Source: Promethearchaeia archaeon (lineage in GTDB: Archaea > Asgardarchaeota > Lokiarchaeia > Sigyniarchaeales > SOKP01). Taken from it: a stretch of 16,316 nucleotides of DNA. The position numbers and the translations under genes are program-made. The notes under the pieces are model-generated. The model did no database searches. It was not told the origin of the DNA and saw only the letters and a program-made list of their open reading frames with translations. Positions 10,973 through 15,780 of the stretch are shown here, one piece after another; position 1 is the first letter of the stretch; each line of letters opens with the position of its first letter. The stretch is taken from NCBI GenBank assembly GCA_046497275.1, contig JAWOFX010000086.1, forward strand, positions 1 to 16,316, written 5' to 3'.

Positions 10973-11272
10973 TTAGAAATTTACAATAGAGTCATTTCCA
11001 AAGATTAAATCAATCACATCTTCGGCTTTGACTAAATTAATTTCATCAGGGATGTATTTAGATAATCCTCTTAATTTGATATCCTCTTCACATGCTGCAA
11101 CTGTCTTTTTTTGGTTAATCGCTTGAGTAATTTCTCTGTTTGTTTTATTGGCGAAATACACTGCATTTTGAAGCAAAAGGATTGTCACGTCATCGTCTTC
11201 TGTATGTTCCATAGCAAACTGAACACCCGTGATGTCTTCACTTGTTATAAAATACAACACTTTTTTACCCAT
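10973..11272 (-). CDS. dsrH: DsrH/TusB-family sulfur relay protein
   Basis: Start moved to ATG 11272 (GGAGG SD; the ORF-track start at 11305 overlaps dsrF). LLLQNAVY and EDIKLRGL motifs, 99 aa, last gene of the E-F-H triad. Confidence 0.8.
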   Translation of the reverse strand: MGKKVLYFITSEDITGVQFAMEHTEDDDVTILLLQNAVYFANKTNREITQAINQKKTVAACEEDIKLRGLSKYIPDEINLVKAEDVIDLIFGNDSIVNF

Positions 11273-11285
11273 TTTTATCAGCCTC

Positions 11286-11630
11286 CTAGAATGGTATTGT
11301 AACATTTGAATTTTCGATCATATCTATGATATCACAATGTTCTCTTACTTCCACTTCATCTATTAAATCATCTTTAGTTAAACCACGTTCGTCAAGGGAC
11401 CGCTTATCAACAAATATATCCAAATCAATATCCTTTAAGAATCCTATGTGCATTGAATACATAGTTTTATCGCAGTCTTTAATAAATGCATATACAGCAT
11501 CATTGATGGCGATTGTTATAGGTTCAAAATCAGCACTCACAGCCACGGACATCCTCAACCCTTCTACGGGATAAAGTGTCCCATGAGGGGGTTGTCGTAA
11601 TAATATAACCACATTTTTTTCTTCTGACAT
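11286..11630 (-). CDS. dsrF: DsrF/TusC-family sulfur relay protein
   Basis: RQPPHG...EGLR, INDAVY and SLDERGL motifs. AAGGTGA SD. Lies between dsrE and dsrH. Confidence 0.85.
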   Translation of the reverse strand: MSEEKNVVILLRQPPHGTLYPVEGLRMSVAVSADFEPITIAINDAVYAFIKDCDKTMYSMHIGFLKDIDLDIFVDKRSLDERGLTKDDLIDEVEVREHCDIIDMIENSNVTIPF

Positions 11631-11641
11631 TTTTAATCACC

Positions 11642-12004
11642 TTAACAAATTGTTATTAATCGATCTGTTTCATCAATAATCTTAGCAAGATCTGGTGTTC
11701 CTGCTCTCTTTATATCACCGCACTCCCTATTAAGGCAGTTTTTCGTGGTACCTCTGACTAATAGACAAAGATTACACAATCTTACTGTAGCTCCTTTTTC
11801 TAATATCTCTTTAAATCCCTGTTCAATGTTAAAAATTCCTTCTACTTCTTTCTGATTTTCTAATACGGCATTTACAGCATCCATATAACAAAAGATTCTT
11901 ACCTCATGTCCTTTATCTAATGCTGCACTGGCTAATTTTACCACAGTTTCGGGGGCTTGAGCCTGATAAGGACCAGCAAAGAAAAGGATTCCTAGTCGCG
12001 CCAT
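11642..12004 (-). CDS. dsrE: DsrE/TusD-family sulfurtransferase
   Basis: GPY, ALDKGHEV..FCYMDAV and LC77NLC80LLVRG, the active-site Cys region equivalent to DsrE/TusD Cys78. GGAG SD. Confidence 0.88.
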   Translation of the reverse strand: MARLGILFFAGPYQAQAPETVVKLASAALDKGHEVRIFCYMDAVNAVLENQKEVEGIFNIEQGFKEILEKGATVRLCNLCLLVRGTTKNCLNRECGDIKRAGTPDLAKIIDETDRLITIC

Positions 12005-12027
12005 TTTAATATCATCTCCTTGTTAAT

Positions 12028-13059
12028 TTAATCTTCTCTCCACATAAACATAAAGTAAGCCGCAATCCAGCATCCAAATACTATACATGCTCCAGCTAAG
12101 ATACTATGTAAGGAGAGTTGTGGCACTCCACCTAAAATATTGGTTATATTACAACCCAATGCTGTTACTGCGCCGAATCCCATTAAGATTCCACCAACAA
12201 ATTGTTTTACTAATGTTAACCCTTCGTTCGGAATTCTTAATTTAAATTCTTTCGCGATTACAGCGCTTATCAAAGCACCGATTACGGCACCAATAATGAT
12301 GGCACCGGTCCAACCTAAAGTTCCTGTAGATGTCAACCAACCACTTATGTTCATCCACCCTCCAGTGATTCCAACAACACCGTTACTGACAATAAAGCCT
12401 ATAGTCAAGATGATACCGATTAAAATTCCAGCCAACCACCAAGGATGTCCCTTCTTAAAGGCTGATTCTACAAAATTCTCTGGTTTTATTAAGGGTTCTC
12501 CGGATTCTTTCTTTCTCTTTATTGCCGGCCATGACCAGAACACAAACATTATTACTATTGCGATGATACCGATAATTAACATAAATATTGGTGTTAAAGC
12601 GCTAAATTCACCAAAAACTGTCAATTGTGATCCAATAGTAATCGATTGTAATGCATTTTTTGTACTTGTAAAAATTCCCCCAGCAGTCATTAATGCTCCA
12701 CCGGTTAATCCTATTGCAGCTACAAAAGATCCCGTCATACCTTCTCCTACTCGATAAGTTGTTCCACTAGCACATCCAGCAGCTAAAACCATTCCTACTC
12801 CAAATATTAAACCACCTACAATAGCAGCGAATGGTTTAAATGGCTTTGGAGAAAGATCAATTACTCCACTTAAAGCAAAAATAGCAAACCCAACCATTAA
12901 CACAGCCAAAGAAACTAAAACAGCTTTTGCTAATTTATATTCCTTTAAAAGGATAATATCTCTAAAGGCGGAATTCATACAAAATCGTCCTCGTTGTAGT
13001 AAAAATCCAAACACAGCTCCGACTATAAGCCCACCTATTAATGCATACCAAAATTCCAT
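12028..13059 (-). CDS. yeeE: YeeE/YedE-family sulfur-compound (thiosulfate-type) transporter
   Basis: Three family Cys motifs: RGRFCMNSAFRD, LAAGCASGT and LGCNI. Also GGLIFGVGM and GGILMGFGA repeats, and about 9-10 TM segments. The GGAGG SD is embedded in the last codons of tusA. Confidence 0.92.
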   Translation of the reverse strand: MEFWYALIGGLIVGAVFGFLLQRGRFCMNSAFRDIILLKEYKLAKAVLVSLAVLMVGFAIFALSGVIDLSPKPFKPFAAIVGGLIFGVGMVLAAGCASGTTYRVGEGMTGSFVAAIGLTGGALMTAGGIFTSTKNALQSITIGSQLTVFGEFSALTPIFMLIIGIIAIVIMFVFWSWPAIKRKKESGEPLIKPENFVESAFKKGHPWWLAGILIGIILTIGFIVSNGVVGITGGWMNISGWLTSTGTLGWTGAIIIGAVIGALISAVIAKEFKLRIPNEGLTLVKQFVGGILMGFGAVTALGCNITNILGGVPQLSLHSILAGACIVFGCWIAAYFMFMWRED

Positions 13060-13063
13060 TTTT

Positions 13064-13303
13064 TTATGCGCCTCCTATTTTCACTAAAATTCGCCATTCT
13101 GAGGTTCCTTGTTTCTCTACTGAAAGCACTTCATGACCAAGAGATTCCATTGTCTCCGGAATTCTCTCCGCAGAAAGTGGATAATCAACCAGAATTTCAA
13201 GAACTTCTCCTGATTTCATTTTCTTTACTTTCCGTTTACTTTTTACATCTGGATAAGGGCATACTTCGCCCGAACAATCCAGTGTTTCCGTAATATCTAC
13301 CAT
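13064..13303 (-). CDS. tusA: TusA/SirA/YeeD-family sulfur carrier
   Basis: LDCSGEVCPYP (CPxP persulfide motif), GEVLEILVD, 79 aa. GAGGA SD. Directly upstream of yeeE with a 4-nt gap. Confidence 0.93.
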   Translation of the reverse strand: MVDITETLDCSGEVCPYPDVKSKRKVKKMKSGEVLEILVDYPLSAERIPETMESLGHEVLSVEKQGTSEWRILVKIGGA

Positions 13304-13785: not shown

Positions 13786-15102
13786 ATGCCGTCCACCTTA
13801 GAAAAGATTAGAATTCTCGGAGAAAATTCAAAATATGATATATGTGCAAGCACATCATCCAGTCGTACTAAAAAATATCCTAAATTGTTTGGAGATACAA
13901 AAGATTGGGTGGGAGCGACAGCAAATGCGGGAATCTGTCATAGTTATACTCAAGATGGTAGATGCATGAGTCTTTTCAAAACTCTTTATACGAATAAATG
14001 CATTTATGATTGTAAATACTGTTTTTCTCAGAGTTGTAAGCATCGAACGAGTTTTACTCCCGAAGAATATGCGAGAACTTTTATGAAATTATATGCGATG
14101 AATGTGGTGGAAGGGGTATTTATCTCCTCTGGAGTGTGCGGAAATGCGGATGATACCACAGAAGAGATGCTGGAGTCGGTTCGTCTACTACGATTTAAAT
14201 ACAATTTCCAAGGGTATATTCATTTTAAATGTTTGCCGGGAGTCAGTCAATATCTTCTTAAAGAAGCGATCGCCCTCTCAGATCGTATTTCCATTAACTC
14301 CGAAGCTTCAAAACAGAGCTATCTTGCAGAAATCTCTTCACAAAAAGATTTCAAAAATGATATTCTTATAAGACAACGATGGATCAAACAAATTCGAATT
14401 GATCACAATAGGGAAGCGATGAAAGAACTGAAAGATATGAAAGAAGATAAAGAATTAGAATTTCAGGAAAAAAAGATTCAAGATCGGCGTGAGAATGGTT
14501 ATAAAAAATTTCGATGGGATGGCGCTCCAATTCTTAACAGTGGACAAACCACTCAATTCGTCGTGGGGGCTGTTGATCAAGAAAGTGATTGGGATTTGCT
14601 TAGAAGAATAGATTGGCAATATCAAAAGATGGATTTAAGAAGAGCATACTTCTCAAGTTTCATCCCAATCGAAGGCACACCATTAGGAAATCGGAATGCA
14701 ACCCCTTTAGAAAGAGAACATAGACTTTATCAAAGTGATTGGTTGCTAAGAATATACCATTATGATATGAATGATTTGGAAAATATTTTAACGGAAGATA
14801 ATAATCTTCCCAACGGAGATCCGAAAATTCACATAGCCCGACATTATTTTCAAGACCATAGTTTAATCGATCCAAATGAAGCCTCATATCGCGAATTGCT
14901 TCGAGTTCCAGGGATTGGTCCTATTTCAGCTAAAAGAATTATAAACTTACAAGCGAAAAAATTTAAAATCAAACGAAGAGAGCAATTGAAATCGATAGGA
15001 GTGGTTCTAAAACGAGCAGATCCATTTCTGAAGATAAATGGAACAAACCAGACTACCATTCACGATTTTTTTGATAATAAATCACAAAACCTATTGAATT
15101 AG
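13786..15102 (+). CDS. Putative DNA modification/repair radical SAM protein (TIGR03916-like) with C-terminal HhH and PIP box
   Basis: KYDIC, GICHSYTQDGRC and C72IYDC76KYC79 (CxxxCxxC, 13999-14022). Also GQTTQFVVGA, R.YFS.F.P, REHRLYQSDWLLRIY and the HhH motif NEASYRELLRVPGIGPISAKRII. Paired with a DUF4130 gene. Confidence 0.9.
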   Translation: MPSTLEKIRILGENSKYDICASTSSSRTKKYPKLFGDTKDWVGATANAGICHSYTQDGRCMSLFKTLYTNKCIYDCKYCFSQSCKHRTSFTPEEYARTFMKLYAMNVVEGVFISSGVCGNADDTTEEMLESVRLLRFKYNFQGYIHFKCLPGVSQYLLKEAIALSDRISINSEASKQSYLAEISSQKDFKNDILIRQRWIKQIRIDHNREAMKELKDMKEDKELEFQEKKIQDRRENGYKKFRWDGAPILNSGQTTQFVVGAVDQESDWDLLRRIDWQYQKMDLRRAYFSSFIPIEGTPLGNRNATPLEREHRLYQSDWLLRIYHYDMNDLENILTEDNNLPNGDPKIHIARHYFQDHSLIDPNEASYRELLRVPGIGPISAKRIINLQAKKFKIKRREQLKSIGVVLKRADPFLKINGTNQTTIHDFFDNKSQNLLN

Positions 15103-15120: not shown

Positions 15121-15780
15121 ATGAAAAAATCTGGAGATCCATTAAAAGTATTAGGAAGAGGGAAGGGCTATTCTCGGGATAAATTAATTAAAAATATAAC
15201 TCGCCATGAAAAATTCACTCCCGATCTTATACATCATATCAAAAAGCTTCCAGATGTAGTTTTACGTAATCTAGGAACTCCGATGGCTAAAAATCTTATT
15301 AAAATGGTTAGAGAAATCTTTCGAGAATCGTATAGAGCGAAACAATTTACCAGAACGAATATTAATGATCGGGGAGTTCTATATGGAATAGTATTATTAA
15401 AGCATAGAGTGATGGATCTCGTGTTAAATTACTTTCATGAGCGATGGCCGAAATGTATTATCTGCTTATATAACGAGCATACGCAAAAAACAGGGATCAT
15501 GGATCAACAAGGAAAAATAAAAGAAGTCAAGATGTCTCTTAAAGAGGTCGTAGATAAAATCAGTAAACATAGACCAGTTATGCCATACTTCGAGGATATC
15601 CAATTTACTGGGAAAGAAATTTTTGAAACCCTCTATGAAACGCAAAATATTACTGAACGGAATAATAAGCGCTATTTCAAACAAATGATTCCGGATAAAT
15701 GTTATGAATTACCCGGATTGAGAAACGGAATAGAAAAGCGATTTGATGATCAAAATAAGAAACTTGACGATTTTTTATAA
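15121..15780 (+). CDS. DUF4130 / TIGR03915-like putative DNA metabolism protein
   Basis: V-x3-RE-x-x-R-x-K-x-F-x-R, H-x-V-x-x-L-x-x-x-YF-x-x-RW and ERNN-x-R-x-x-x-Q-M-I-P resemble DUF4130. It lies 18 nt after the radical SAM gene with a GAGTGA SD. This family is known to be paired with TIGR03916. Confidence 0.75.
   Translation: MKKSGDPLKVLGRGKGYSRDKLIKNITRHEKFTPDLIHHIKKLPDVVLRNLGTPMAKNLIKMVREIFRESYRAKQFTRTNINDRGVLYGIVLLKHRVMDLVLNYFHERWPKCIICLYNEHTQKTGIMDQQGKIKEVKMSLKEVVDKISKHRPVMPYFEDIQFTGKEIFETLYETQNITERNNKRYFKQMIPDKCYELPGLRNGIEKRFDDQNKKLDDFL

Follow-up and report, generated by a model that had tools for sequence, protein, structure and literature searches.

We analysed a stretch of 16,316 nucleotides from a Promethearchaeia archaeon of the lineage Lokiarchaeia (contig JAWOFX010000086.1 of assembly GCA_046497275.1, forward strand; the whole stretch is called the window below). 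At 13786..15102 on the + strand it encodes a 438-residue radical S-adenosylmethionine (SAM) protein with a helix-hairpin-helix (HhH) domain, of the TIGR03916 or COG4277 type, and close to the C-terminus of this protein lies the peptide QTTIHDFF (residues 422-429, 15049..15072, + strand). From its codons, its conservation and a model of the complex, we consider it quite probable that QTTIHDFF is a real PCNA-interacting protein (PIP) type motif that docks the enzyme on the sliding clamp PCNA, probably together with the DUF4130 protein encoded by the adjoining gene, and that bacterial relatives use their beta clamp in the same way. The support for docking on PCNA is in silico; tethering in vivo, a heterodimer in this organism and radical chemistry are what we infer.

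Residues Q422 to F429, encoded by CAG ACT ACC ATT CAC GAT TTT TTT, match the PIP consensus Q-x-x-[LIM]-x-x-[FY]-[FYW] exactly. The open reading frame (ORF) and the codons bear out in full where the sequence-only reading had placed this motif, how it numbered the residues, that it matches the consensus and that nine residues separate it from the C-terminus. Those nine residues, DNKSQNLLN, together with a TAG stop codon occupy 15073..15102 on the + strand; they are not conserved among Asgard homologs and have a predicted local distance difference test (pLDDT) score of 48. The motif had also been said to come just after an HhH motif, which is roughly right: it lies C-terminal to the HhH DNA-binding domain (residues 359-404, 14860..14997, + strand; Pfam HHH_3, E 6.8e-9, and HHH, E 4e-4), but a conserved segment intervenes at residues 405-420. 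This final conserved structured segment, recognized by conservation and pLDDT, reads GVVLKRADPFLKING (405-420) plus TN (14998..15048, + strand) and leads into the motif. Within it G405, K409, A411 and P413 are invariant in the Asgard alignment (A3), and the clamp motif follows the same ...PF[IL]x[IL][ND]G segment in archaea and bacteria alike.

Tail motifs in archaeal and bacterial orthologs

The nearest homologs of the radical SAM protein belong to Promethearchaeota, Loki-, Thor-, Hod- and Heimdallarchaeota, and the 120 best of them, which are 73-94% identical, make up the Asgard set. The motif core, Q at position 1, [LIM] at position 4 and [FY] at position 7, is kept in all 120 Asgard homologs, while positions 2, 3, 5 and 6 vary freely (13 residue types are seen at position 5 and 10 at position 6), and downstream of position 7 there are 1-19 unconserved residues. 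When archaeal tails were shuffled, a Q..[LIMV]..[FWY] core arose in 3% of trials. Invariant anchors amid variable positions and a variable tail are typical of a short linear motif, and the pattern in these sequences suggests such a motif here.

A genome scan yielded 80 named loci, 53 of them from archaea outside the Asgard group, and in 49 of these 53 the protein carries [QDY]-x-x-[LIVM]-x-x-[WFY]; in 39 of the 49, 0-2 residues separate the motif from the C-terminus. The lineages represented among the 49 are Methanosarcinales, Methanothrix, Thermoplasmata, Methanofastidiosa, Thermococci, Woese-, Nano-, Micr- and Altiarchaeota, and Methanobacteriaceae. In some of them D or Y replaces the glutamine, as in D-T-T-L-E-M-W of Methanothrix and its relatives and in Y-S-R-L-D-R-W of Methanofastidiosa. 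The core thus persists across phyla in proteins that share 37-49% overall identity. The four exceptions are three Methanobacterium copies and one copy from Nanoarchaeia. A separate sample of the Methanothrix phylum comprised 301 genomes, of which 98 have the gene; 30 loci were fetched, and all 30 proteins end in [QDG]xxLxx[FYW]. The conservation among archaeal orthologs that had been anticipated from the single sequence is therefore found at each of these three depths of sampling. As a side observation, the TIGR03916 matches of four Methanothrix-phylum genomes (G578, G617, G483 and G412) contain one in-frame TGA each, and that of a fifth (G577) contains one TAG; these copies could be pseudogenes, split genes or cases of recoding.

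Bacterial members of the family have a different motif at the corresponding place. Our bacterial set of 55 orthologs was drawn from 30 Sporomusa-phylum genomes, 20 loci of 19 Chloroflexota genomes and the named bacterial loci; in 45 of them the last 60 residues contain a Q[LM]x[LMF][FW]-like motif, that is, one of the QLxL[FW] beta-clamp type, and 31 fit a strict beta pattern that is expected in 0.3% of shuffled tails (0.3-4% across patterns). Most of the other ten carry variants such as QLTLSW, QTSLW, QLSFDF and QLALPLF. The statement in the sequence-only reading that bacterial members often end in QL[S/D]LF-type motifs is thus confirmed. A true PIP-type motif was found in none of the 55 bacterial orthologs, the two pattern hits in their last 60 residues being QLALPLF and QTELPLF, and no beta-type motif was found among the archaeal copies examined. 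Chloroflexota proteins typically end in ...LLDGRxPxxQLxL[FW], so that the beta motif begins about five residues past the ...[ND]G strand, which is the same position as that of the archaeal motif. DnaN, the beta clamp, is present in all four bacterial genomes tested. Representatives at 50% identity show the same two tail types, with the PIP type in, for example, Diapherotrites and Woesearchaeota and the beta type in Armatimonadota and Anaerolineales.

One apparent bacterial exception, a metagenome-assembled genome (MAG) labelled 'Sulfurovum sp.' (L076/L118, JAIVYC010000028.1) whose protein carries QARLSKWL, was rejected, as this 0.9 Mb genome has PCNA and no DnaN. Its GTDB phylum comprises 17 genomes of 0.6-1.1 Mb, and the MAG is probably a mislabelled archaeon of the DPANN type. 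We also note that the phylum search for 'Calditrichales bacterium MX18-03' (G003, JAJGRE010000001.1) returned the same genome set as the search for Sporomusa rhizae; the GTDB placement of this bacterium seems to differ from its NCBI name.

The sequence-only reading went further and held that an archaeal motif swapped to fit the clamp would be strong evolutionary evidence of clamp dependence. The two domains do have their own motif types, but the trees reduce this to a single event. A tree built from 133 labelled sequences separates archaea from bacteria by one branch (Shimodaira-Hasegawa-like approximate likelihood ratio test support of 91). In a larger tree of 262 rows, some of them unlabelled representatives, the labelled archaea all group in a single clade of 120 rows that contains no beta-type tail, and all labelled bacteria lie in the remainder. 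No case of archaea nested in bacteria, or of the reverse, was found in either tree or in the 301 Methanothrix-phylum genomes. Independent, repeated motif swaps were therefore rejected, since all archaeal sequences lie on one side of one branch. Because there is only this one split between archaea and bacteria, the correlation between domain and motif counts as one evolutionary event, a point that tells against the proposed role of the motif; judged from these sequences, the weight of the correlation comes from the long upkeep of each motif within each domain and not from replication.

Predicted docking on PCNA and competing explanations

The host is an Asgard archaeon with a genome of 3.85 Mb and 30% GC that is 98.9% complete. 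It has a single PCNA gene (267 residues), and we found no match to DnaN in the genome. Several of its PCNA clients have C-terminal motifs similar to QTTIHDFF, namely QQKLSDFF in PolD DP2, QVSLDQFM in FEN1 and NRKITQYF in RNase HII. Within the last ~33 residues, the strict motif occurs in 11 of 3096 proteins (0.36%) of a rough set of host ORFs; the known client PolD DP2 is one of these. Two further host proteins with a strict C-terminal PIP pattern are a DUF72 protein (G000:C34:2090-2962; ...QTSLDKYFSN) and a leucine-rich-repeat protein (G000:C151:13345-14949; ...QTKITDFF). Each of these may be another clamp client or may have matched by chance.

In the AlphaFold2 model of the complete radical SAM protein, built with a 116-sequence alignment (A1), the mean pLDDT is 90; residues 411-420 score 94, residues 421-430 score 71 and residues 431-438 score 48. 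The motif, modelled as a helix, thus lies at the border of the ordered region. For prediction of the complex, host PCNA (alignment A2) was combined with the isolated tail of the enzyme, residues 399-438 (alignment A3). The PCNA-tail interface score (ipSAE, the interaction prediction score from aligned errors) was 0.75, with 0.79, 0.73 and 0.75 in the individual runs, compared to 0.00 for the best control; a control in which PCNA was swapped for an unrelated protein likewise gave 0.00. In the calibration of this score, 58 of 80 solved complexes and 2 of 110 mismatched pairs attained the mark. The runs agree on at least 83% of contacts, and the pLDDT of the partner is at least 58. Tail residues 417-431 contact PCNA residues 41, 44-48, 128-135, 231-232 and 248-255, and these modelled contacts correspond to the classical PIP site, made up of the hydrophobic pocket, the interdomain connecting loop (IDCL) and the C-terminal tail of PCNA. 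Together with the conserved core and the beta motifs of bacteria, the predicted docking supports the recruitment to the sliding clamp that had been proposed from the sequence.

Besides the single event behind the match of domain and motif, several observations weigh against this assignment. The sequence-only reading called the PIP box canonical, which is exact for the present copy and does not hold for the family: position 8 is aromatic in only 43 of the 120 Asgard homologs (F in 43, I in 32 and T in 25), and rarely so in other archaea. Three Methanobacterium (Methanobacteriaceae) orthologs (L072:2992-4110, L073 and L074) end in ...SYQTTL followed directly by the stop codon, so that the aromatic half is gone; no DUF4130 gene adjoins these copies, one of which (L072) has ParB/ParA-like genes on the opposite strand, and the QTTL form may be decaying or re-purposed. 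The 11 host tails with the strict motif include unlikely clients, for example an ABC ATPase and a leucine-rich-repeat protein. PIP-PCNA complexes are textbook structures, many of which have been solved, and the success of the complex prediction, for which the isolated tail was used, may therefore reflect likeness to these complexes; it shows likeness and not binding by this particular copy. Finally, the motif begins two residues past a well-folded segment, and its helix has a pLDDT of 71; in the intact protein, the motif could thus be partly packed on the protein body or on DUF4130. Some bacterial members, moreover, have in the corresponding position, N-terminal to QLSLF, a weakly similar segment (for example ...NGKKVGDIDNLL or ...GRAQGDLGAFL), so the motif segment may have started as a structural element.

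These last points lead to the main rival explanation, which holds that Qxx[LIM]xx[FWY] is a structural C-terminal helix that packs on the HhH domain, on the radical SAM core or on DUF4130, and that its likeness to a PIP box is incidental. Besides the closeness of the motif to the folded segment and the faintly similar, amphipathic bacterial segment, it can draw on a preprint in which a large interface is modelled between a bacterial member of the family and its DUF4130 partner (10.64898/2026.08.19.745780). However, a switch to the QLxL[FW] clamp consensus at the same position in bacteria is not what one would expect of a packing helix, and neither is the location of the motif at the extreme C-terminus in many lineages, with free variation at positions 2, 3, 5 and 6. 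The DUF4130 partner, furthermore, has a second, separate PIP-like tail that is seen in archaea only (see below), and the model places the tail with confidence on the canonical site of PCNA. On balance we regard the structural helix as unlikely, though as the likeliest of the alternatives.

A slightly less likely alternative is that the tail does bind a partner, but that this partner is another hub such as RPA/SSB, a polymerase subunit or another repair factor. Several hubs are bound through short hydrophobic motifs at the C-terminus, and the frequent lack of an aromatic residue at position 8 would agree with this. On the other hand, the pattern, its spacing and its terminal place match the PIP motifs of PCNA clients of the host itself, its bacterial counterpart is a well-defined beta-clamp pentapeptide, and an unrelated protein put in place of PCNA scored 0.00 in the complex prediction. 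The remaining explanation, that QTTIHDFF is a chance match or a decaying relic without function in the host, could point to the strict patterns that do arise by chance among the host tails and to the Methanobacterium copies without the aromatic half, but the invariance of the core in the Asgard set and its upkeep across phyla, far above its frequency in shuffled tails, make it very improbable. Docking on PCNA by a PIP-type motif thus stays our preferred explanation.

The DUF4130 partner and other features of the locus

The gene for the DUF4130 protein (219 residues; 15121..15780, + strand; Pfam DUF4130, E 3.2e-12) starts 18 nucleotides downstream of the radical SAM gene, on the same strand, and this gene order recurs in archaeal loci. 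The protein consists of a single domain and has no uracil-DNA glycosylase (UDG) domain; against TIGR03915 it scores 39.8 bits, which is below the cut-off of 112. Profile searches of the 98.9%-complete host genome gave no match to a UDG of the TIGR03914 type. As judged from these sequences, the archaeal module works in the absence of the UDG-like partner from which the name of the bacterial family derives (rSAM_link_UDG).

At its extreme C-terminus, the DUF4130 protein carries a second PIP-like motif, NKKLDDFL (15754..15777, + strand), which resembles the RNase HII tail of the host, NRKITQYF. We looked for [LIM]xx[FYW] in the last 16-20 residues of DUF4130 partners. Of 58 archaeal partners 51-55 have it, or 48-49 if a stricter pattern is applied, against 3-4 of 28 bacterial partners, or 2 with the stricter pattern; shuffled tails give 20% and 6%. 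In archaea the motif most often lies one residue from the end, as in ...NKKINDYL, ...TTLDDFL, ...KTLDEYL and ...KLSEFF, whereas bacterial partners end in ...MPKKYWKYLxE. By the distribution of these tails, the two-gene module gained a PIP-like tail a second time, separately from the first, in the DUF4130 protein, and both subunits may dock on PCNA. A metagenomic protein of 664 residues (P0114) joins the two parts in one chain, with QTTLCNFF lying internally between the radical SAM and DUF4130 parts and with a C-terminus that reads ...QNRKLDDFS; it could be a real fusion or an artefact of assembly or frameshift.

The assignment of the radical SAM protein itself is based on its ORF and on profile matches. 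With 346.1 bits against the curated NCBIfam cut-off of 343.5, the match to TIGR03916 passes by a narrow margin; it covers positions 3-383 of the 415 in the profile, so that the last ~30 positions, which describe the bacterial-type C-terminus, are left unmatched. Pfam finds Radical_SAM and HHH_3 in the 438 residues. The CxxxCxxC motif of the radical SAM cluster reads CIYDCKYC (C72, C76 and C79; 13999..14022, + strand), and its three cysteines are near-invariant in alignment A1 and invariant in A3. Among solved structures, a Foldseek search found no close relative; its top 50 hits are generic radical SAM folds (HydE, ThiH, LipA, BioB, PFL-AE and viperin) with TM-scores of ~0.35-0.39. The protein also has an Asgard-specific, Lys/Glu-rich helical insertion at residues ~205-250 (window ~14398-14535), which is modelled as a long helix of lower pLDDT and which relatives from outside the Asgard group bypass, matching the protein in two stretches (~1-203 and ~250-428). 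Upstream of the gene, on the - strand, lies a sulfur-relay cluster (window 10973-13303) of DsrH, DsrE/F-like, YeeE-like membrane and TusA-like genes; the cluster and the radical SAM gene are divergently oriented, with a spacer of 482 nucleotides in between.

Proposed mechanism and relation to known systems

We propose that the enzyme combines a [4Fe-4S]/SAM radical core with an HhH DNA-binding domain and is probably paired with the DUF4130 protein of the adjoining gene. Its exposed tail would place [LIM] of position 4 and the aromatic residue or residues into the hydrophobic pocket of PCNA under the interdomain connecting loop, with the glutamine of position 1 acting as an anchor. In this way the enzyme would be tethered to clamp-loaded DNA at sites of replication or repair, where it might repair or modify some DNA lesion or base by radical chemistry. 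With the PIP-like tail of DUF4130, the two proteins together could take up two subunits of the clamp homotrimer, and bacterial orthologs would achieve an equivalent tethering by the QLxL[FW] beta-clamp motif at the same place. The fullest form of this proposal is that a heterodimer of enzyme and DUF4130, with two docking tails, rides PCNA in archaea and the beta clamp in bacteria, so that this widespread, SOS-linked family would be the first radical SAM enzyme of DNA repair or modification that is known to be clamp-tethered, acting on a lesion or base at the fork; we consider the chances of this being right and wrong to be about equal.

In its tail, the protein resembles archaeal PIP clients such as FEN1, PolD DP2, the large subunit of RFC, RNase HII, DNA ligase and NucS/EndoMS, whose last folded domain is followed by a short peptide of the form Qxx[LIM]xx[FWY][x] at the C-terminus; it differs from them in that the catalytic part is a radical SAM enzyme and in that orthologs often lack the second aromatic residue. 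It would be a new client of a known docking system and not a new mechanism. With the bacterial TIGR03916/COG4277 protein it shares the family, the CxxxCxxC motif and HhH domain, the adjoining DUF4130 gene and a clamp peptide past the same last strand; the archaeal copy differs in its PIP-type motif, which takes the place of QLxL[FW], and in the Asgard insertion at ~205-250. The modules as a whole differ as well: the bacterial one combines TIGR03915 with a UDG-like TIGR03914/COG1573 protein, whereas the archaeal DUF4130 protein is short, scores below the TIGR03915 cut-off, comes without UDG and has a PIP-like tail of its own. Like the spore photoproduct lyase (SPL) SplB, the enzyme is a radical SAM protein proposed to act directly on DNA. 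Membership in the SplB family was rejected, as no SPL family model matched at E <= 0.001 and no SPL was among the top 50 Foldseek hits; we know of no HhH domain or clamp motif in SPL.

To our knowledge, SOS/LexA control is absent from archaea. For bacteria, the COG1573-COG4277 operon has been placed in the LexA/SOS regulons of Bacteroidetes, Verrucomicrobia and Alphaproteobacteria (PMC8565304), a regulation that fits a role on damaged DNA. In SOS neighbourhoods, Aravind and colleagues linked DUF4130 with UDGs and with radical SAM proteins of the present family, which they call 'SplB-like' (PMC3765255), and a 2026 preprint describes a confident modelled heterodimer of a bacterial DUF4130 protein and its radical SAM neighbour (10.64898/2026.08.19.745780). 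The relevant passages of these three papers make no mention of a clamp motif, and our literature search found no description of a clamp-binding motif or PIP box on a radical SAM enzyme or on TIGR03916.

TIGR03916/COG4277 and DUF4130 form a widespread gene pair that is DNA-damage-inducible in bacteria. A tail type that tracks the clamp of the host, PIP in archaea and QLxL[FW] in bacteria, would place the enzyme on clamp-loaded DNA, at sites of replication or repair. If this is true, a radical SAM enzyme joins the clients of the sliding clamp, in archaea in a bivalent arrangement specific to this domain, with tails on both subunits. The tail may thus guide experimenters toward the function of a widespread orphan repair module, for which PCNA-loaded DNA would be the likely substrate context.

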